A stretch of DNA of 64,000 bases from an uncultured Acidobacteriota bacterium (GCA_963797495.1 CAWCPN010000002.1:2345953-2409952); one strand, 5' to 3'. Counted from the first letter of the stretch, positions 2,035 through 64,000 are shown. A program made the numbers and translations. The notes: generated by a model not told the origin, from the sequence alone.

Positions 2035-5854
<3,820 letters not shown>

Positions 5855-18961: not shown

Positions 18962-20296
18962 ATGAAGGTCTTCCGCATCGCGCTTCTGCTGCTGGTCGTC
19001 CCCGTCGCCGCCTCCGCACAGCGGCCGCCGCGCCCGACGCCGACCCCCGCGCCGTCGCCCGGTCCGCTCAAGATCACGGCGCGCAAGGAACGGATGGATC
19101 GCTACCTCCTGGCGGCGATGCGCCGGTCCGGTGTCGACACGTGGCTGTTGCTGACGCGCGAGTACACGACCGACCCCGTGGCCTTCGACGTGGCCGCGGA
19201 CAACGCCGTCGGCCGCGCCGCGTGCCTCTTCGTCGACCGCGGGGAAACGCTCGAGCGCGTCGCGATCGTCGCGAGCTACGACACCAATGCGTTCGAGACG
19301 TCCGGGCTCTACACGCGGGTGATCCCGTACGGCAAGGAGGGCGCGGGTCCGGCCCTGCGGGAACAGATCGGGTTGTACTCGCCCAAGGTGATCGCGGTGG
19401 ATCAGTCCAAGGATCTCGCCCTGGCCGACGGCCTGACGGCCGGGAACCTCCAGTGGCTGCGCGACACGCTGGGGCCGGACCTTTCCAAGCGACTCGTGTC
19501 CGCGGAGGCCCTGCTCGTCTCGTTCCGCAGCCGGAAGACCCCGGCGGAGATCGCGAAGATGCGCGAGGCCGTGCGGAAGACCGAGAGGATCCTGGAGGAG
19601 GCGCTCTCACCCAACGTGATCACTCCCGGAAAGACCACGGAGAGGGACGTCGCCGACTACATCCGCAGCCGCCGGTCGGAGCTGGGTCTGGGTCCGTCCT
19701 GGGGCGAGGATCACGATCCCAACGTCACGGCAGGCGTCGCCCGCGGTCACTCCGGGGCGACGGACGCTCCGATTACGCCGGGCGCCGTGATCCACATCGA
19801 CGCCGGCGTCGATGACGACGGGTACAAGACGGACATCCAGCGCCTCGCCTACGTGCTGCGCCCCGGTGAGACGAAGGCGCCCGAGGATGTCCAGCAGGCT
19901 TTCGACACCGTCAAGGCGGCCAATCGGGCGGCCGCCGCGGCCCTCAAACCCGGCGTCCGCGGCGCGGCCGTCGACGCCGCGGGCCGCAAGGTGATCACCG
20001 ACGCGGGGTACGCCGAGTTCGTGCATGCCACGGGGCACCCGATCGGTTTCTACACGCACGACATCGGCCCGCTGCTCGCACCGGATTGGCCGGACCGGTA
20101 CGGGAAGCTCGGCGACTACACGATCGAACGGGACCAGACCTTCGCCATCGAGCCGAGCCTGCAGACGGAGCTGCCGTGGATGATGGGAGGGACGGTGGGA
20201 TTCGGCCTCGAGGAGGACTACGTCGTGACCGAAAAGGGAAGCGAGCCGCTGGGCTCGCTGCAGGAATCTCTGATCCTGATCCCGAGCGCCCCGTGA
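18962..20296 (+). CDS. Exported M24 (Xaa-Pro) metallopeptidase
   Basis: Signal peptide; HIDAG..YKTDIQR, HATGHPIG..HD, IEP, LEED. Confidence 0.88.
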   Translation: MKVFRIALLLLVVPVAASAQRPPRPTPTPAPSPGPLKITARKERMDRYLLAAMRRSGVDTWLLLTREYTTDPVAFDVAADNAVGRAACLFVDRGETLERVAIVASYDTNAFETSGLYTRVIPYGKEGAGPALREQIGLYSPKVIAVDQSKDLALADGLTAGNLQWLRDTLGPDLSKRLVSAEALLVSFRSRKTPAEIAKMREAVRKTERILEEALSPNVITPGKTTERDVADYIRSRRSELGLGPSWGEDHDPNVTAGVARGHSGATDAPITPGAVIHIDAGVDDDGYKTDIQRLAYVLRPGETKAPEDVQQAFDTVKAANRAAAAALKPGVRGAAVDAAGRKVITDAGYAEFVHATGHPIGFYTHDIGPLLAPDWPDRYGKLGDYTIERDQTFAIEPSLQTELPWMMGGTVGFGLEEDYVVTEKGSEPLGSLQESLILIPSAP

Positions 20297-20925
20297 GGGG
20301 TCCGAAGCTCGCGTCGACGCTCGCCCTCGCGCTGGCGATCGGCTGCGGAGGCGGCCTCAAGACGATCACGAAGGACGGTTACACCGCCGTGCTCGCCTAC
20401 TCCTCCCAGGAGCGATACGCGGTGGCCGTGCGCGGCGAGTCGCGCCGGATCGAGGGCGAGGCCGACGGCGCGCCGCTCGTCAAGGTCGCGCGCCCCGACT
20501 TGAAGACGGTGTGGCAATACCGGCCCACGACGAAGAAGCTCTTCGCCTCCGCCTGGGCCCCGACCGACGAGATCGTGCCGGGCTATCCCCTCGAGCCCCA
20601 CTTCGATCCACATGCGTACGCCGACCGTTTCGGCGGGCAGATCGAACGGATCGGCGACGATACCCACGGCCTGCACCCGTGTACTCGCTGGCGGATGACC
20701 CTGCCCTCGGGCGACACGGTCACGATCTGGGCGGCCCGGGACCTCGAGGACCTCGCCGTCAAGATCGAGCACGTCAAGAAGGACGAAAACGACGAGTCGC
20801 AGCCCTTCACGACGACCGAGCTGCTCGACGTTCGTGTCGGCGCTTCCGCCTCGCTCTTCGAAAAGCCCAAGGGCTACACCGAGGTCAAGACCTACGAGGA
20901 CCTCGGCAAGCCGGGGCCTGGCTAG
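20293..20925 (+). CDS. Putative lipoprotein (DUF4412-like)
   Basis: GTGA coupling, lipobox AIGC, C-terminal SLFEKPKGY. Confidence 0.6.
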   Translation: MRGPKLASTLALALAIGCGGGLKTITKDGYTAVLAYSSQERYAVAVRGESRRIEGEADGAPLVKVARPDLKTVWQYRPTTKKLFASAWAPTDEIVPGYPLEPHFDPHAYADRFGGQIERIGDDTHGLHPCTRWRMTLPSGDTVTIWAARDLEDLAVKIEHVKKDENDESQPFTTTELLDVRVGASASLFEKPKGYTEVKTYEDLGKPGPG

Positions 20926-20938
20926 GCCCCCTTCCCCC

Positions 20939-20964
20939 GGGGCGGCCACGAGGGCCGCCCCTGC
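20939..20964 (-). repeat. REP hairpin variant
   Basis: Minus strand GCAGGGGCGGCC-CTCGT-GGCCGCCCC; same loop as 4044-4070 with a compensatory stem change. Confidence 0.75.
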
Positions 20965-21002
20965 GACCGGGCCGCCGATTTCGCCGCAACGCAGCATCAG
21001 TT

Positions 21003-21164
21003 CGCGGCGCGGAAAGTCTCCCGACCGAAGGGAGGGAGGAGGTCCGCGCCGCGGGAGCGAAGCGCGCCGCGAGGGGTCAGGCCTGCGGTCGAGCGCGCAA
21101 CCGCGCGAGCCGCAGGGCCGGTGCGTCCGCAGGACGCAGACCCCGCGCAAGCGCGGAGCGACGG
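21003..21164 (+). repeat. Structured intergenic repeat, copy B
   Basis: Colinear with the reverse complement of 3855-4012; covarying stems. Confidence 0.8.
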
Positions 21165-21168
21165 ACGG

Positions 21169-22248
21169 TTACGCCGCGATTCGCTCTCTTCCCCGGATCG
21201 GCCGCAGCGGCTCGAAGTCGCGGAAGAGGATGTGGTCGTAAAAGTAGTGCACCAGGAGGAACGACAGCACGACCACGTAGTAGCTCCGGTCCTGCGGGAA
21301 ATCGAGTCCCTTCCAGAGGATCAGGTAGATGACGCCGGCGGAAAAGGTCGCGCCGATCATCGAGAGGTAGAACTTCCTGGTGTTCTCCTTCCCGGCGAGC
21401 GCGCGCGCGAGGCCGCTGCCGATCCGGCCCGTGTCGGCCTCGCGGCCGAGCATGAACCAGGTCAGCGCCAGGTACTGGAGCGAGTGCCACGTGTTGAAGC
21501 CCTGGAACGACATGTCGAGGTTGTCGAAGACCGGGACCACGAACGCCATGGCCACGGTCATGGTCATGAAGAGCAGGCGCGGCCAGGACGTCTCGCCCCG
21601 CTTGATCTCGCGCAGGGTCCGGGCCACGTAGAAGACGAAGAAGGCGGCGTAGCCCACGGTGAAGGCCACGGCCACCGCGCGATGCTTCAGGAAGCTCGGG
21701 AAGAGCAGCACGGCGTCGCCCAGCGCGAACCGGTTCTCGACGAACTTGTACATCGCCATGAGGTAGAGCGCCCCGAGGATCACGGCGCCGTCGAGCCAGC
21801 GATCCAGAGCGCGCACGGGAGATCCGGTGCGCATCCGGTAGGTCTCGGAGATGAACTGGGCCTGGTGCGTCACGTGAAGCGAGGCCCAGAGGAAGAAGCC
21901 GGTCAGGAGCAGAACGAACGCATAGAGCGACCCGAGGACGACCAGGGTCGGGATGACGATGAGCGGCAGATAGGCCAGTAGCCCCCAGCGCCGGCGAAAC
22001 CGGGGCTCGAAGGCCGTCCGCAGGTACGTGGAGTACATGTGCGGCCCGCCCACGAGGACCGTCACCGACAGGCCGACGATCAGGCCCGATGTCCCCTCGG
22101 AGACCCCGACCTTCGTGAGGAACCCGTACGAAAGGTACGGGAGGAACACCAGAGCCCCCGAAAGGGTCAGGAAGAGCAGATCGAATCGCTTGTCGCGAAT
22201 CCAGAGGGCGGAATCCTCTCGCGGACCCGCCATGGCCGTGGACGACAT
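21169..22248 (-). CDS. Polytopic membrane protein with His motifs, function unknown
   Basis: GGGGAGG SD, many TM segments, PHMYST / HVTHQ / WHSLQY / HYFYDH. Confidence 0.75.
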   Translation of the reverse strand: MSSTAMAGPREDSALWIRDKRFDLLFLTLSGALVFLPYLSYGFLTKVGVSEGTSGLIVGLSVTVLVGGPHMYSTYLRTAFEPRFRRRWGLLAYLPLIVIPTLVVLGSLYAFVLLLTGFFLWASLHVTHQAQFISETYRMRTGSPVRALDRWLDGAVILGALYLMAMYKFVENRFALGDAVLLFPSFLKHRAVAVAFTVGYAAFFVFYVARTLREIKRGETSWPRLLFMTMTVAMAFVVPVFDNLDMSFQGFNTWHSLQYLALTWFMLGREADTGRIGSGLARALAGKENTRKFYLSMIGATFSAGVIYLILWKGLDFPQDRSYYVVVLSFLLVHYFYDHILFRDFEPLRPIRGRERIAA

Positions 22249-54439: not shown

Positions 54440-56848
54440 GTGACGCTCGTTTCCGGCACGCGGCTCGGGCCTTACGAGATCGTCGCGCCGCTCGGCGCGG
54501 GTGGTATGGGTGAAGTCTACCGGGCGCGCGACAGCCGCCTGGGGCGCGAGGTGGCGGTCAAGGTGCTGCCCGAGGCGCTGGCTTCGGACCCCGGCCGGTT
54601 GCGCCGCTTCGAGCAGGAGGCACGCTCGGCCTCGGCGCTCAATCATCCCAACATCGTCACGATCCACGACGTGGGCCGGACGAACACGGTGTCGTGGATC
54701 GCGATGGAGCTCGTGGAGGGGGCGAGCCTGCGCCAGCGGCTGGCGGAGGGCGCGATGCCGTCGAAGCAGGCGCTCGCGATCGGCGCCCAGATCGCCGCCG
54801 GTCTGGCCAAGGCGCACGAAGCGAGCATCGTTCATCGAGACCTGAAGCCCGAAAACGTCATGGTGACGTCCGAGGGACTCGTGAAGATTCTCGACTTCGG
54901 CCTCGCCAAGTCGCCGCCGGCCCCCGGTGAAGGGAGCCAGGTCGCCACCGCGACGCAGCAGACGAGCGCCGGCGTCGTTCTCGGGACCGTCGGCTACATG
55001 TCGCCGGAGCAGGCGACCGGAAGACCGGTGGACTACCGCTCGGACCAGTTCGCTCTGGGGGCCATCCTTTACGAGATGGTATCGGGCCGCCGTCCCTTTC
55101 AGCGCGCGACGGCGGTCGAGACGCTGTCCGCCATCCTGAAGGAGGAGCCGGAGCCCCTGTCGTCCGCCGGTCCGCCGACGCCCGAATCGCTGACGTGGAT
55201 CGTCGGTCGTTGCCTCGCCAAGGAGCCGGCGCGGCGCTATCAGTCGACGCACGATCTCGCGCGGGACCTCGCCGACGCGCGCGAACGGTCGTCGGGGATC
55301 GCACGATCTCCGGCGGGCGCGGGAAGGTCCGGGACGCCCCGGCGCGCAGCGATCGTCGTCGCCGCGCTGGCGCTCGCCGCGGTGGCGGCCTTCGCCGTGC
55401 TGCGCGGCCGGGCCAGGCCCTCGGTTTCCGACTCCGTCCGGTCGCTCGCCGTTCTTCCCCTGAAGCCTCTCGGCGGCGACGCCGGCGACGAGGCGCTGGG
55501 CCTGGGGATCGCGGACACGATCATCCGCGGCTTGAGCGGAGCGGGAGCGATCACCGTGCGGCCGCTCTCGGCCGTGCGCCGCTATGCGAAGTCGGACGCG
55601 GACGCCGTGACGGCCGCGAAGGAGCTGCGGACCGACGCGGTGCTCGAGGGCTCCGTGCAGCGATCGGGAGGCAAGCTGCGTGTCAGCGTCAACCTGCTCG
55701 GCGTGGGCGACGGGCGGTCCCTCTGGGCCGAGTCCTTCGACGTGCCGGCCTCGGAGGTCTTCGAGGTCCAGGATCGAGTGTCCGAAGCGATCGTCAGCCG
55801 TTTGCGTCTTCACCTGGAGCCGGCGCAGCGCGACCGGCTGAAGAAACGCTTCACCGACAACCCCGAGGCCTACCAGGAGTTTGCCCTCGCGGCGAGCGAG
55901 GAGGGCAAGGCCGGCCCGGGCTGGGGCGGCGACCATCTGCGCGAAGCCATCCGCCGTTACGAGCGGGCGGTGGTCCTCGATCCGAACTACGCGCTGGCCC
56001 ATGCGCGTCTGGCCGGGGCCTACCTGTGGGCGGACCTCCTCTTCGAGCCCGGCGCCGGCTACCTCGAAAAAGCCAATCGCTCGGTGGCGGAGGCCGAGCG
56101 ACTCGATTCGCAGCTCGCCGAGACGCATCTCTTCCGCTATCAGCTGGCCTGGAGCCACTACCAGAACTACGACATCCCGACGGCGCTGCGCGAGCTTCGG
56201 GCGGCGGTGGCCCTGGATCCCCTCTCGGCCCACCCCGAGCTCGCGATCCTCTACGCGCACATCGGGCTCGAGGACGCCTTCCGGCGCGAGGCCGCCCGCG
56301 CCCTGGAGGTCGATCCGTCGTCGGACTCGGCGCGCCGGTGGAGCGTCGAGGGGCTCGTGCTCCTGGGCCTCGCCGACGAGTCCCTCGCCGCGGCGAAGAC
56401 GCGGGGCCTGCCGCTCTCGGAATCCCGGCTCCCGATGAGTCTTCTTTCCCTCGGGCGCTTCGGCGAGGCCCGGGCGGCGACGGAGACTCTCCTCCGGGAG
56501 ACGCCGGGCCAGCACGTTGCCGTGGCGATGCGGGAGCTCGTGGCCGTCCTCTCCCGGGAGCGGCCGGTCGACGAGGCGGCCCTCGGGGCAGCGCTCGAGT
56601 CGGGGAAGCTCAAGCGCGACTACCACCACACGCTCTACGCGATCGCCTGCATCCGCGCGGCGCAGGGCGACAACCGGGCCGCGGTCGACATGCTTCGGCG
56701 TACCGTCGCGACCGGGATGCCGGACCGAACCCTGTTCCTCGCCGACGCGCTCCTGGCGGGTGTGCGCTCGAGTCCCGAGTTCGCCGCGTTCGACGCCGAG
56801 CTCGAGCCGGCCTGGCGGCAATTGGAAGAGGAAGAGTCAGGCGGCTGA
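54440..56848 (+). CDS. Ser/Thr kinase with TM, TolB-N-like and TPR regions
   Basis: LGAGGMGEVY, HRDLKPEN, DFG, YMSPEQ; SLAVLP, LEGSV, LDPNYALA. Confidence 0.93.
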   Translation: MTLVSGTRLGPYEIVAPLGAGGMGEVYRARDSRLGREVAVKVLPEALASDPGRLRRFEQEARSASALNHPNIVTIHDVGRTNTVSWIAMELVEGASLRQRLAEGAMPSKQALAIGAQIAAGLAKAHEASIVHRDLKPENVMVTSEGLVKILDFGLAKSPPAPGEGSQVATATQQTSAGVVLGTVGYMSPEQATGRPVDYRSDQFALGAILYEMVSGRRPFQRATAVETLSAILKEEPEPLSSAGPPTPESLTWIVGRCLAKEPARRYQSTHDLARDLADARERSSGIARSPAGAGRSGTPRRAAIVVAALALAAVAAFAVLRGRARPSVSDSVRSLAVLPLKPLGGDAGDEALGLGIADTIIRGLSGAGAITVRPLSAVRRYAKSDADAVTAAKELRTDAVLEGSVQRSGGKLRVSVNLLGVGDGRSLWAESFDVPASEVFEVQDRVSEAIVSRLRLHLEPAQRDRLKKRFTDNPEAYQEFALAASEEGKAGPGWGGDHLREAIRRYERAVVLDPNYALAHARLAGAYLWADLLFEPGAGYLEKANRSVAEAERLDSQLAETHLFRYQLAWSHYQNYDIPTALRELRAAVALDPLSAHPELAILYAHIGLEDAFRREAARALEVDPSSDSARRWSVEGLVLLGLADESLAAAKTRGLPLSESRLPMSLLSLGRFGEARAATETLLRETPGQHVAVAMRELVAVLSRERPVDEAALGAALESGKLKRDYHHTLYAIACIRAAQGDNRAAVDMLRRTVATGMPDRTLFLADALLAGVRSSPEFAAFDAELEPAWRQLEEEESGG

Positions 56849-56864: not shown

Positions 56865-59536
56865 TTGACTCTGTCTGCCGGCTCGCGACTCGGCCCCTAC
56901 GAGATCCTCGCGCCCATCGGGGCGGGCGGGATGGGTGAGGTGTACAAGGCGCGGGACACGCGTCTGGAGCGCACGGTCGCGGTGAAGGTGCTGCCGCAGC
57001 ATCTCTCGGCTTCGCCGGAAGTGCGGCAGCGGTTCGAGCGCGAGGCGAAGACGGTTTCGCAGCTCTCGCATCCGCACGTCTGCGCGCTCTACGACGTGGG
57101 GCGCGAGGGCGAGACCGAGTACCTGGTCATGGAGTACCTGGAGGGGGAGACGCTGTCGGCGCGTCTGGCCGGCGGCTCGCTGCCGCTGACGCAGACGCTG
57201 AAGATCGGGGTGGAGATCGCGGACGCGCTGGACAAGGCGCACCGGCAGGGGATCGTGCACCGGGACCTGAAGCCCGGCAACGTGATGCTGACGAAGACGG
57301 GCGTCAAGCTGCTGGACTTCGGGCTCGCGAAGGCAATGGCGCCGACGAGCGCGCCGTCGTCCGGCGCGACGTCGCTGCCGACGGTGATGGGGGCGGCGAC
57401 GGGGGAGAACCTGACGCAGGAAGGGACGATCCTGGGGACGTTCCAGTACATGGCGCCCGAGCAGCTCGAGGGCAAGGAGGCCGACGGGCGGACGGACATC
57501 TTCGCGTTCGGGTGCGTGCTGTACGAGATGGCGACGGGTCGGAAGGCGTTTTCGGGCTCGTCGCAGGCGTCGCTGATCTCTTCGATCATGAAGGAGGAGC
57601 CGGCGCCGGTGTCGGCGGTGATGCCGACGTCGCCGCCGGCCTTGGATCGGGTCATCCGGAAAGCGCTCGACAAGGACCCGGAGGACCGGTGGCAGAGCGC
57701 GGGGGATCTCGGGAGCGAGCTGAAGTGGATCGCCGAGGGCGGCTCGCAGAGCGGGATTCCGGCGCCCGCGCTGCCGGCCCGGCGGCGCTCCGCGGCCTGG
57801 CTGCCCTGGGCGGTGGCGATCGTCCTCGCCGGCCTCGGCCTGGCCGCGGGAAGTCTCCTGCGTCGCGCTCCCGCGGCGCCCGTGCTCCGATCGTCGATCG
57901 ATCTGCCGCCGCAGATGGAGCTCGAGTCCTCCAATCAGTCGGTCGCCCTTTCGCCGGACGGCAGCGACGCTCGCCCTCGCGGCGACCGGGGCGGAGGGAA
58001 AGCGCCAGATCTGGGTTCGTCGCATGGACGGCTTCACCGTTGCGCCCCTGGCCGGTACCGACGATGCCGCGATCCCGTTCTGGTCGCCCGACGGCCGGAA
58101 CATCGGCTTCTTCGCCGATCGCAAGTTGAAGCGGATCCCGGCGGCCGGGGGGGCGGTCCAGACGATCTGCGAAGCCGCGGACGGCCGCGGCGCGAGCTGG
58201 AGCGTGGACGACGTGATCGTCTTCGCCCCCGCGCCCTTCGGCGGACTCTGGAAGGTCCCGGCCGGCGGCGGCACGGCGGAGCCGCTGACGAAAGCCGAGG
58301 GGGCGGGGGCCACACACCGACTGCCCTGGTTTCTTCCGGACGGGAAGCGCCTGCTCTATTTCTCCGGCACGCAGACCTCCGACGAGGAGAAGAAGAGCGC
58401 CATCGAGGCGCTGGACCTTCGGACGGGCCGATCCACGTTCGTCGCCCACGAAAACAGCGAGGGGCGATACGCGGAGCCCGGCTACCTCCTCTTCATTCGC
58501 GACGGGAATCTCCTCGCGCAGCGGCTGGATCCTTCCAGCCTGAAGGCGAAGGGGCCGGCGACGCCGATCGCCGAGGGCGTGCTGTTCGAGCCTTACCGGT
58601 GGTTCGGGAACTTCACCGTGTCGAACCTGGGTCTTCTGGTCTTCCAGAGCAACACCGCCCAGCGCAAGCGGCGGCTGACCTGGTTCGACCTCGACGGGCG
58701 GCAGCTCGGCCAGGTGGGCGAGGCGGCGGACTTCTTCTCGGTGACGCTTTCGCCCGACGATCGGCGTGTGGCCTCGACGATTCGGAGCGGCGCCTCGGCG
58801 AAGCCGGAGGTCCGTCTCTACGATCTGGATCGCGGCGTCGGTTCGCGGTTCACGTTCGGGGATCAGGGCGCGGACTTCCCGATCTGGTCGCCCGACGGAC
58901 GCCGGATCGCCTTCGGCGATCCCGGCTTCGGCGTTCGCGTCAAGGCCGCCGACGGCGCGTCGGAAGCGAAGGTCGTTTTGCCCGAGAGGACCAACATCTG
59001 GCCGCTGTCCTGGTCGCCGGATGGAAAGCACATGCTTCTGCGCATTCAGGATTCGAAGACGGGTGGCGTGGGTCTCTGGGACCTGGCGCTCGAGGGAGAT
59101 CATCAGCCCCGCAAGCTCGTCGACTCCGATCCGGACGAGTTCCTGAACGGGTCGATTTCGCCGGACGGCAAATGGCTGCTCTACGTCTCGAACGAGACCG
59201 GCCGGTCGGAGATCTACCTGGTCCCCTTCGCGGGGCTCGGCGAGAAACGGCAGGTGTCGACGGCCGGGGGCGCGTCGGGCCGGTGGCTCTCGGATCGGTC
59301 CATCGTCTATGGCCAGCCTCCCGACGGAAAGCTATTCGTCGTGGACGTGGACACGAAAGGCGGTTCGCTCCAGATCGGTCCGCCGCACCCGATCTTCGGC
59401 GGCAGGCCTTCGCCGCAGCGGCCCGTTCGACGCCTCCCATGACGGAAAGAGGCTGCTGTTTGCCGTGCCGGTGGACGACACCTCGTCGGCGCAGCTCCGC
59501 CTGGTCTCCGACTGGCTCGCCGAGCTCGGAAGGTAG
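56865..59536 (+). CDS. Ser/Thr kinase with PD40 beta-propeller (frameshifts near 57966 and 59415)
   Basis: IGAGGMGEVY, HRDLKPGN, DFG, YMAPEQ; repeated WSPDG/SPDG. Confidence 0.9.
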
Positions 59537-62035: not shown

Positions 62036-64000
62036 TTGACGCTCGCTTCCGGAACCCGGCTCGGCCCTTACGAGATCCTGGCGCCGCTCGGCGCGGGGGG
62101 AATGGGCGAGGTGTACCGGGCGAAGGACTCGAGGCTTCACCGCGACGTCGCGATCAAGATCCTTCCCGAGTCGGTGGCGCGCGACCCGGAGCGGCTGGCG
62201 CGCTTCCAGCGCGAAGCGCAAGTCCTGGCCGCGCTGAATCATCCGCACATCGCCGCCATCTACGGCCTCGAGGAGGCGGGCGGTGTGCCGGCGCTGGTCC
62301 TGGAGTTCGTCGAGGGAGAGACGCTCGCGCAACGCCTGGCCCAGGGCCCGATGCCGATCGATGAAGCGCTCGGCGTCGCGCGCGGGATCGCGGAAGCCCT
62401 CGAAGCGGCGCACGAAAAGGGGATCGTCCACCGGGACCTGAAGCCCGCCAACGTGATACTGACGCCGGGCGGCTCCGTGAAGGTTCTCGATTTCGGTCTC
62501 GCGAAGGCCCTGGCCGTGGACGGCGCGGCTCCCGACGTGACCCGCTCGCCGACGATCACGGCCGCCGCGACCCAGGCGGGTGTCGTCCTCGGAACGGCGG
62601 CCTACATGTCGCCGGAGCAAGCGCGCGGCAAAGCCGTCGACAAGCGCTCCGACATCTGGTCGTTCGGGGCGCTGGTGTACGAAATGCTGACGGGCCAGCG
62701 GTGCTTCGAGGGTGAGACCGTGTCGGACGTGCTCGCATCGGTTCTGCGGCAGGACCCCGAGTGGTCGAGGCTTCCGCGCGAGACTCCGGCGGCGGTCAGA
62801 CTGTTGCTCCGCCGTTGCCTCGAGCGCGACCCGAAGAAGCGGCTGCGCGACATCGGCGACGCGTGGCTCGAGGGCGCGGCAGGGCCGGACCCGGCCCCGG
62901 CTTCCCGGAGATTCCCGATCGGCTGGACCGCGGCCGTCGTTCTCGCGCTGGCGGCGGGTTACGCCGCCGCGCGTTGGCTCGCGAAGGCCGAGCCTCCGGC
63001 AGGGCGGCCGGCGGCGACCCATTCGATCGTCCGTCTGCCTCCCGGGGCGCGGCTCTCGGGCTGGGCGTCCCCCGTCGTCGCGATCTCGCGCGACGGGCGC
63101 GTCGTCGCGTTCGTCGCCGAGAAAGAGAACGAGCCGCAGCGGCTTTGGATCCACCGGCTCGATCGCGACGACACGAAGGTCGTCCCCGACAGCGACAGCG
63201 CGGAGGGCCCCTTCTTCTCGCAGGACGGGCAGTGGATCGGCTTCGCCACGAACGTCTCGCAATCCGGAGGCGCTGGAGAAGGACGGCTCAAGAAGTACTC
63301 CGTCTCGACCGGACTGACGCAGCCGGTGGCCTCGATACCCGACTACTACGGCGGCAGCTTCGCCGCCGACGGCTCGATTCTGGTCGCCGCTTCGACGACC
63401 GAGGGCCTCTGGCGTCTGCCGGCCGGTGGCGGAAAGCCCGACACTTCGACCGAGAGAGTCGTCTGGCAGGGAAAGGAGGTGACGCGGTCGATGTCCTGGC
63501 CGCAGATCCTTCCCGGAGGTGCGGCGGCCCTCGTCACGGACGTGGATGCCGTGCCGATGAGCGTCGCTGCGCTCGACCTTCGCAACCGCCACCTCCGGAC
63601 GCTCGCCACGGACGTCAGGTTCTGCCGGTATTCGGGCGACGGCCGGCTCCTGATGCTGAAGGCCGACCGGACGCTGCTCGCGGCTCCGTTCGATCCCGCA
63701 AGCCTCCGCATGACGGGCGAGGCGGTGGCCGTGCTGAAGGACGTCGCGTTCGGAGGCAACGATGGAGGTTCCTTCGCGCTCTCCGAAACCGGGACGCTGG
63801 TCTACGCGACGGGCACCCTCCGTGGTAGCGGTCTCGAACCCATGCGCCTCGTCCGCGTCACGGAGAAGGGCGGGATCGATCCGCTGCCCGTTCGAGTCCG
63901 AGGCGTTCGGCCGAGTGCCGGCCCCTTCCCCGGACGGTCGAAGACTCGCCGCCATGACGATGGACGGCTCGCTATGGATCTACGACCTCGCGAGGCGCGT
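62036..64000 (+). CDS. Ser/Thr kinase with PD40 propeller, truncated by window end
   Basis: Read directly from TTG 62036: LGPYEILAPLGAGGMGEVY, HRDLKPAN, DFG, YMSPEQ; absent from ORF track. Confidence 0.9.
   Translation, partial: MTLASGTRLGPYEILAPLGAGGMGEVYRAKDSRLHRDVAIKILPESVARDPERLARFQREAQVLAALNHPHIAAIYGLEEAGGVPALVLEFVEGETLAQRLAQGPMPIDEALGVARGIAEALEAAHEKGIVHRDLKPANVILTPGGSVKVLDFGLAKALAVDGAAPDVTRSPTITAAATQAGVVLGTAAYMSPEQARGKAVDKRSDIWSFGALVYEMLTGQRCFEGETVSDVLASVLRQDPEWSRLPRETPAAVRLLLRRCLERDPKKRLRDIGDAWLEGAAGPDPAPASRRFPIGWTAAVVLALAAGYAAARWLAKAEPPAGRPAATHSIVRLPPGARLSGWASPVVAISRDGRVVAFVAEKENEPQRLWIHRLDRDDTKVVPDSDSAEGPFFSQDGQWIGFATNVSQSGGAGEGRLKKYSVSTGLTQPVASIPDYYGGSFAADGSILVAASTTEGLWRLPAGGGKPDTSTERVVWQGKEVTRSMSWPQILPGGAAALVTDVDAVPMSVAALDLRNRHLRTLATDVRFCRYSGDGRLLMLKADRTLLAAPFDPASLRMTGEAVAVLKDVAFGGNDGGSFALSETGTLVYATGTLRGSGLEPMRLVRVTEKGGIDPLPVRVRGVRPSAGPFPGRSKTRRHDDGRLAMDLRPREAR

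Follow-up and report, generated by a model that had tools for sequence, protein, structure and literature searches.

Two paired repeats in the window

The DNA analyzed here is a stretch of 64,000 nt (the window), which corresponds to G000:C2:2345953-2409952 of the source genome, G000 (4.13 Mb, 69.5% G+C). Within it, the gap between two convergent ORFs (20086-20925 and 21169-22248) is entirely occupied by a unit, copy B, in which a REP hairpin stands beside a structured repeat that is referred to as the module. A second unit of the same build, copy A, is antisense to both of its neighboring genes (start at 3831; stop near 4108), which, from their translations, we take to be lepA and a tsaD-like gene, respectively. 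The features of the two units are as follows.

3859..4013, plus strand: module of copy A, defined by alignments and belonging to another subfamily of the 3' hairpin than copy B
4044..4069, plus strand: REP hairpin of copy A, with a GTAG foot, the stem GGGGCGGGC and the loop CTCGT
20923..20925, plus strand: TAG that ends the convergent ORF 20086-20925; the copy B REP is 13 nt away
20939..20964, minus strand: REP hairpin of copy B, with a GCAG foot, the 9-bp G+C stem GGGGCGGCC and the loop CTCGT; an exact match to the pattern, with 0 expected by chance
20965..20999, minus strand: spacer of copy B, made up of the 3' tail of the module and the conserved CCGGTC lead-in of the REP
21000..21166, minus strand: module of copy B, about 160 nt; its 5' domain is branched and its 3' part forms a long hairpin (nhmmer match 21000-21161)
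21169..21171, minus strand: TAA that closes the upstream ORF 21169-22248, which is co-oriented with the module; the CCGTC start of the module follows after 2 nt

The GYAGGGGCGGNCCTCGTGNCCGCCCC pattern of the hairpin has exactly two matches in the 64-kb window, at 4044-4069 (plus strand) and 20939-20964 (minus strand), and none of 100 dinucleotide shuffles of the window produced one. In both units the hairpin lies 3' of the module and on the same strand, with a gap between module and hairpin foot of 33 nt in copy A and 35 nt in copy B. This confirms the observation made in a preliminary description of this DNA, which had reported the same hairpin near each module, in the same relative orientation and at a similar distance of about 35 nt, and whose quoted letters are correct. 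The GTAG foot that it ascribed to the hairpins is present in copy A but is GCAG in copy B, as it is in 21 of the 71 such hairpins of the genome, and the range that it gave for copy B, 20939-21164, should end at about 21166, at the CCGTC start right after the TAA at 21169-21171.

The loops of the two hairpins are identical and their stems are one compensated pair apart (GGGC/GCCC versus GGCC/GGCC). The complete units align with a mean column identity of 77% over 324 columns, identity in the spacer being poor, and the spacer of copy B aligns with a tail, GGATG..TGCCGCGGAAA..GGCTCCGGTCGTAGGGG, that is common to the composites of a related genome (G007), about 10 nt of it being deleted in copy B. 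Among the 42 nhmmer matches to the module in the genome, copy B has the top score (125 bits, model positions 2-159); the match to copy A covers 3870-4010 (model positions 12-156, 75.8 bits). In a comparison of the intergenic region across nine genomes, the gene to the left of copy B (ORF 20086-20925) is about 4 codons longer in G000 than in its relatives, so the entire intergenic content is unlike theirs.

Elsewhere in the window, three paralogous gene segments (54441-54918, 56866-57340 and 62037-62514) have DNA identities of 67-79% and appear by eye to be kinase-like (..KILDFGLAK..), and ..WSPDGR.. repeats lie nearby, at 58073-58110, 58877-58914 and 63207-63244.

REP hairpins and a probable cognate transposase

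REPs and the REP-associated tyrosine transposases (RAYTs) are known mainly from Proteobacteria. In G000, a GTA or GCA foot is found on 71 of 415 GGGG hairpins, and the number of G(T/C)A-footed GGGG hairpins, 71, compares with 15 in a reversed-genome control. Among their stems, GGGGCGGGG (24 copies) and GGGGCGGCC (23 copies) predominate, their loops have the form CT(C/T)G(C/T), and 49 of the 71 midpoints fall outside the genes of a crude model, which account for 80% of the genome. The genome thus holds 71 REPs by a loose definition and 29 by a strict pattern, which finds up to 238 in relatives and 0 when reversed as a control; a looser hairpin definition was dropped, as its 589 matches were mostly ordinary G+C palindromes. 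The hairpins of the window therefore have the foot, the palindrome and the many extragenic copies that characterize GTAG-class REPs.

That the hairpins are true REPs of this class, as had been proposed, is borne out by sister genomes, in which a gene for a 155-aa Y1/HUH transposase is flanked by the same hairpins. Such genes, of 154-157 aa and with DHVHLL and ARYILENP motifs, occur in G031, G007, G051 and G003, in all of which REPs lie just upstream on the strand of the gene; in G031 and G007, opposite-strand REPs directly follow its stop codon, which places the RAYT between REPs. The G007 protein (G007:C17) scores 38.8 bits against PF01797 (Y1_Tnp), for which the cut-off is 23. With this protein as query, the gene was found in 11 of the 43 other genomes of the genus (9 full length, 2 partial). 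It is present as one copy per genome and has the features of a RAYT in sister genomes only. In G000 itself the 155-aa RAYT was not found, the best matches being long paralogues with 27-30% identity; this absence is provisional, like others reported here, since the assemblies of the genus are mostly incomplete (55-99%; G000, 92%).

The PF01797 proteins of G000 are three Y1 paralogues of 320-333 aa with long C-terminal extensions (G000:C2:1290549-1291550, 2009959-2010924 and about 2027750-2028750). These were rejected as the cognate RAYT because no REP or module adjoins them, and they may be of the TIR-associated type that is reported for Acidobacteria in the accessible text of PMC3733652.

Several further features of REPs and RAYT genes were seen. 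The RAYT of G031 (G031:C60:53250-54100) has one in-frame TAG in its tblastn match, and in G051 four tandem GGGGCGGGGTT(T/C)ATCCCCGCCC hairpins, spaced by about 38 nt, come after the gene. In G046, which is without the RAYT, the REP of the composite at one locus (L187, see below) has decayed, for example to GTAGCGGCAGCC. Finally, a second REP mosaic exists in which CTCGT-loop REPs lie inside a longer conserved element, ..GTCGTTTCTCAACAGGTTGTTCAC..REP..GCTGACAGGCTGACGATTCGCGTGCC..; it is found in G000:C2 near 1651216, 2082519, 2131733, 2236582, 2998985 and 3427174, and an inverted hairpin with the stem GGGGCGCCC is often its partner, at a distance of about 70 nt.

A structured module that often follows stop codons

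The module has a length of about 160 nt, or about 190 nt with its tail, and conserved helices. Iterated nhmmer searches gave 42 matches in G000; of the 159 model positions, 100 or more are covered by 34 of these matches and 130 or more by 31. Its multi-branch fold, previously proposed from the window alone, is real and supported by covariation in 79 copies from several genomes: 97.3% of cells pair, compared with 86.2% in shuffles, changes on both sides are found for 23 of 40 pairs (13.3 +/- 1.6 in shuffles), and the covariation score (0.288 versus 0.092) was reached by 0 of 500 shuffles and contrasts with 0.03-0.08 in slid controls. Two rows of this alignment, those from the window, are partial (one is without the 5' half and includes the REP, the other lacks a few 5' bases), the remaining 77 rows being unaffected. 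The paired changes run from G-C to A-U or C-G with G-U intermediates almost absent, which hints at a constraint at the DNA level or on both strands. When the covariance models of Rfam 15 were run on the window, no match other than a tRNA reached its gathering score, and on 20880-21220 the only matches were chance ones (E = 3.6 and E = 9), neither of them inside the module.

The 5' end of the module has a marked relationship to stop codons. In 70 of the 108 modules with an intact 5' end, a stop triplet lies 0-5 nt before the CGTCGC anchor, and in 50 it lies exactly 1 nt before it; the upstream frame is open in 66 of these 70, with a GC3 of 0.86. The stops are TAA in 29 cases, TGA in 21 and TAG in 20, compared with 103, 1040 and 639 among the 1782 confident ORFs of G000. 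TAA is thus strongly over-represented, but a test exaggerates the difference, since the module copies are related and come from several genomes. By the crude gene model, about 17 of 34 G000 modules begin 2-16 nt after a co-oriented ORF. Both modules of the window start right after a T-R-R triplet (21162-21171 and 3853-3862). At the copy A site, the module-free genomes G014 and G016 keep ...ACCTGA, and in G044 the same ...ACCTGA is directly followed by CCGTCGC; since the TGA is already carried by module-free genomes, the T-R-R is a pre-existing target and is not borne by the module. The module would, in our proposal, land directly 3' of a T-R-R triplet, which would be the stop codon of a co-oriented gene in about six of ten copies.

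A replication-strand bias, as for IS200/IS605-like elements, was not found in G000: the leading strand carries 19 of 34 modules, 31 of 71 REPs and 1108 of 1978 genes. Modules show no dependence on PF01797 genes, and their ends show by eye only a weak likeness as terminal inverted repeats (CCGTCGCGAGCGC versus the reverse complement of GCGCCGCGAACGG), with no target duplication seen. An assignment to the CGTC-tagged REP superfamily on the basis of the CGTC start was rejected, as members of that group, where PMC3733652 could be consulted, have 8-9-bp stems beginning with A-T, and CCA tails.

Tandem arrays of module sequence were also observed. G000:C2:1085203-1085719 contains three full modules with a 179-nt period, G000:C2:498163-498468 contains the first ~60 nt of the module five times with a 62-nt period, and G007:C8:5972-6296 has an 82-nt period in which the 3' half of the module is combined with the tail and one half of a REP, the joins being at a few letters common to both sides.

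Pairing of modules and REPs across the genus

In G000, modules and REPs are paired within 1 kb only in the two window copies, that is, in 2 of 42 modules and 2 of 71 REPs. To place this in the genus, 44 genomes were scanned with exact patterns, for which reversed-pattern controls gave 0-1 matches per genome (module) or none (composite, REP) and which undercount diverged copies, 24 of the 34 near-full G000 modules being matched. The composite pattern had 46 matches in 11 of the 44 genomes (15 each in G007 and G051, 4 in G046, 3 in G048, 2 each in G003 and G000 and 1 in each of five others), and the reversed pattern had 0. The pattern of the module 3' hairpin was found in 39 genomes (46 copies in G051, 44 in G046, 39 in G052, 38 in G013, 32 in G007 and 24 in G000) and the REP pattern in 40 (238 in G051, 176 in G007, 95 in G043, 90 in G003 and 29 in G000). 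There are genomes that contain modules without any REP (38 in G013, 24 in G050 and 9 in G055) and genomes that contain REPs without any module (83 in G031, 64 in G045 and 58 in G015), so the two families have spread independently. None of the conclusions relies on G024, a genome that is flagged as unpublished.

Where the two do meet, the arrangement is polar and the spacing biased. The gap is 38-48 nt in 39 of the 46 composites, with peaks at 40-42 and 45-47 nt, a range in which a uniform distribution would place 31%; in G000 it is 33-35 nt, compared with 38-48 nt in most genomes. In 21 of 21 pairings found the REP and the module share a strand, and in 0 do they lie on opposite strands. These comprise 2 same-strand REPs 3' of the 42 modules of G000 (1 kb searched on either side), 6 in a sample of 103 modules with an intact 3' end from the collection, and 13, plus one truncated array, among 34 modules fetched from G007. 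No REP was found 5' of a module within 1 kb in G000 or within about 70 nt upstream in G007, and no partner REP accompanies a composite within 1 kb in G000 or, for the modules sampled in other genomes, within the 127-147 nt that follow.

Under an even spread of REPs over non-genic DNA, about 0.05 composites would be expected in G000, where 2 are observed, and 0.13 in G007, where 13-15 are observed, the latter expectation borrowing the non-genic size of G000. G007 and G051, which have the most composites, also have the most REPs and the REP-flanked 155-aa RAYT, and only there are composites frequent.

These counts bear on the view, taken in the preliminary description, that the element as such is a composite. 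This view is not supported in that form, given that 40 of 42 module matches and 69 of 71 REPs are solo in G000, that module-only and REP-only genomes exist, that the parts are separate in relatives at the orthologous A and B sites, and that composites are scattered over the module tree (see below). The interpretation as a whole is partly supported in that the outcome named as its refutation, hairpins and modules distributed independently without bias in spacing or orientation, is not what the genus shows: co-occurrence is rare in G000, but the 46 pairings and the gaps between their parts are far from random. The pairing is thus a recurrent mosaic rather than one obligatory element, and it is not due to chance.

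Histories at single loci

Mixed states (module only, REP only, both or neither) were found at five loci, namely the sites of copies A and B and three others (L187, L197 and L199).

Copy A site: both in G000; module only in G044 (orthologous, same subfamily), G053 (another subfamily) and G048 (5' half); REP only in G051 and G014 (a doublet in the latter); short or empty in G016 and most others
Copy B site: both in G000; module only, in the opposite orientation and after the stop of the other gene, in G007; REP doublet only in G016 and G001; neither in G011 (empty, about 25 nt) or in G010, G005, G004 and G002 (other repeats)
L187, 4 kb from the orthologue of copy B: both in G007, G051 and G046; solo module in G052, G014, G048, G006 and G009; REP only, none seen; neither in G000 (4-nt gap), and no module or REP match in most others (gaps of 7 nt to 2.9 kb)
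L197: composite in G007; solo module in G051 and G014; REP only, none seen; empty in G048, G052 and G046
L199: composite in G007 and, by length, also in G051; module plus tail in G052 and G046; REP only, none seen; empty in G048

At L197 in G007, a second copy of the module 3' end follows the REP. At L199, the place that the REP occupies in G007 (orthologue G007:C22:209635-209988) is taken in G052 (C4) and G046 (C9) by a C-rich palindrome, CCCCTCTCCCC..GGGGAGAGGGG, which follows the module tail and could reflect selection for any hairpin at this position. At a further locus, L198, a composite is common to G007 and G051. Taken together, these loci show that the parts have been gained and lost separately and that composites have also been inherited across species.

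The other repeats in the gap orthologous to 20926-21168 are an TGTCATCCCGAGG-type inverted-end element in G005 and G004, a GGTTCCAGG-type palindromic array in G002 and another hairpin in G010.

How the composites may form

The reading that we favor, at a probability of roughly 55%, is that of a polar, BIME-like mosaic, in which a REP-bearing block has repeatedly been added to the 3' end of resident modules, through insertion that is strand-specific or copying that is primed by homology. A tree of G007 modules, which draws on about 160 nt and in which gene conversion may have obscured the signal, has composites and the two REP stem types dispersed over its branches, and the nearest neighbors of composites include solo modules (96%, 92% and 91% identity). 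Behind the REP of no fewer than 5 of the 14 G007 composites comes another module 3' end, which in two cases belongs to the subfamily of the preceding module, and the junctions lie at short letters common to the REP arm and the module loop. The scattered status on the tree and the module 3'-end remnants after the REP both favor repeated addition of REPs.

According to this proposal, 20939-21166 (minus strand) and its twin at 3859-4069 would be mosaics of two interspersed repeat families of an uncultured soil genus in the Thermoanaerobaculia, a class of the Acidobacteriota, and the REP would be an ordinary GTAG/GCAG-footed hairpin, of the class that a 155-aa RAYT is expected to use as substrate. 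A minority of modules would acquire a same-strand REP block on their 3' side, giving a facultative, polar 'long form' that may be built and lost locally and repeatedly, and then be inherited vertically. We infer that the strict polarity stems from a strand-specific process at the DNA level, for which the candidates are RAYT-type single-strand insertion beside the module tail and the copying, primed by homology, of a REP tail that another composite supplies. The sequences 5' of REPs in general showed no conserved short target motif, so targeted insertion by the RAYT is a candidate only. Copies A and B are probably immobile relics in G000, a genome in which the RAYT was not found.

A more elaborate version of these events is offered tentatively. 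In it, the module would itself be mobile DNA of a class not described before, conserved for its structure and inserted strand-specifically after T-R-R, so that landing is mostly on stop codons, and its 3' tail would serve as a preferred docking site or copy primer for RAYT-driven REPs, with polar, heritable mosaics of two independent, selfish repeat families as the result.

Composites at different loci share a conserved tail, GGATG..TGCCGCGGAAATGAGG..GGCTCCGG, which links module and REP and is attached to a module in 9 of 10 pattern matches. A tail that is conserved and almost solely module-attached suits copying of the whole unit as well as local assembly, and presence or absence of whole composites is indeed seen (L199 is empty in G048 and full in G007; L187 is empty in G000). 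It might be proposed that module, tail and REP (~235 nt) form a composite transposon that is copied whole, with the REP as the right-end hairpin for a Y1 enzyme and with solo modules as short or REP-lost forms. We regard this as rather unlikely, even though such a transposon would account for the discrete shared ends of composites (a T-R-R triplet followed by CCGTCGC on the 5' side and, on the 3' side, GCCGCCC(T), beyond which homology stops), for a tail and linker conserved at no fewer than 13 G007 loci and almost never seen without the module, for the filled and empty sites of whole units, for the frequency of composites only where the RAYT is present, and for the arrangement at L197, where a full composite stands upstream of an older module-end remnant as if inserted at the stop before a resident copy. 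Against it, the 5' end of the module has no REP-like hairpin that might act as a left end; on the module tree, composites mingle with solo modules and one stem type with the other; single loci are polymorphic for solo and composite forms, with module-only and REP-only states at the A and B sites; and modules thrive without a REP or any PF01797 match (G050, G055). Repeated addition to resident modules accommodates this interspersion.

The position of modules invites another explanation, in which the module is a 3'-UTR RNA element and a downstream hairpin is selected as a transcript end or a block to exonucleases, so that function and not mobility maintains the pair. The 70 modules that lie 0-5 nt after a stop triplet, 66 of them after an open frame with high GC3, fit this idea, as do the convergent pairs in which each gene has its own module, the other palindrome that takes the place of the REP at L199 in G052 and G046, and the description of E. 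coli REPs as 3'-UTR elements in the accessible portion of PMC3733652. Such recruitment is nevertheless improbable: a generic RNA hairpin would serve in both orientations, but in 21 of 21 cases the foot of the REP and the module share a strand, and such a hairpin is absent from most modules, copy A is antisense to both of its neighbors, no U-tract follows the REP, and change from G-C to A-U with few G-U pairs better suits a constraint at the DNA level or on two strands. Mere coincidence of two abundant repeats in short permissive intergenic regions, with the A/B likeness arising by chance, is hardly credible: both regions are indeed hotspots that hold different repeats in different species and G000 has 2 pairings only, but the strand is fixed, the spacing is narrow, the reversed pattern has 0 matches in 44 genomes, and the pairings exceed even-spread expectation in both G000 and G007.

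Implications of the mosaic

The formation of mosaics by addition of REPs to modules bears on how REPs choose their landing sites and on the origin of mosaic intergenic elements. This genus provides a natural series for such studies, with genomes that have or do not have a RAYT and that contain modules only, REPs only or both, and with intermediates surviving at several loci, so the order of events can be tested by comparative genomics and one purified enzyme. If the module tail is indeed a docking site for REPs, one miniature element would target another, and REP capture would yield new, larger mobilizable units. The module is also of interest in its own right: the genomes richest in it have 24-46 copies that match the pattern, its compensatory change is strong, and it begins 1-2 nt after stops. 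For annotation, intergenic blocks of about 230 nt of this kind are to be read as repeats, and neither as genes nor as riboswitches.

Relation to known systems

A search of the accessible literature found no paper on REPs in Thermoanaerobaculia, and among the matches listed for Acidobacteria and RAYTs only PMC3733652 concerns repeats; the comparisons below draw on the accessible portions of the papers cited.

The REP/REPIN and RAYT systems (Nunvar 2010, PMC2817692; Bertels and Rainey 2011, PMC3116915; Messing 2012, PMC3479197) are the closest match to one half of the unit. As in the parts of those accounts that are available, the hairpin measures about 25 nt, its GTAG-type foot is unpaired, each genome has tens to hundreds of copies, doublets in inverted arrangement are common in the genus, and a single small, REP-flanked Y1/HUH gene is present in sister genomes. 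In contrast to what they describe, the units of the window contain one REP and no doublet, held in a fixed polarity to an unrelated, structured 160-nt repeat, and G000 has REPs while its RAYT was not found. They also differ from classical BIMEs, which in the sources at hand have alternating REP orientations and short linker motifs, in having one REP beside a 160-nt module.

In the module, the likeness is to the single-strand 'peel and paste' elements of the IS200/IS605 type and to miniature elements derived from them, as far as these are covered by the accessible text of PMC6006769. The left end of the module always abuts a fixed target (T-R-R, then CCGTCGC), there is no evident terminal duplication, and subterminal hairpins and Watson-Crick changes in helices with few G-U pairs are present. 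Unlike these elements, the module has no transposase linked to it and abounds in genomes without any PF01797 match, and it shows no replication-strand bias, its 19 of 34 copies on the leading strand equaling the share of genes.

Mosaics that are centered on REPs are already known. In the sections of Di Nocera 2013 (PMC3733652) that were available, a few families of GTAG REPs show a regular association with conserved tracts of other kinds, hundreds of Pseudomonas structures join degenerate GTAG units to unrelated stem-loops, and stop codons are often supplied by GTAG termini; these associations establish REP-centered mosaic intergenic elements as a precedent. Compared with the mosaics described there, the partner in this genus is much larger, has several helices and is a high-copy family of its own with a preference for T-R-R, and the REP lies beside it rather than inside it. 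What is new here is the partner, a large, structured repeat family that goes unmatched in Rfam and targets T-R-R, together with the strictness of the polarity and spacing with which a REP is joined to it, and the taxon in which this occurs.
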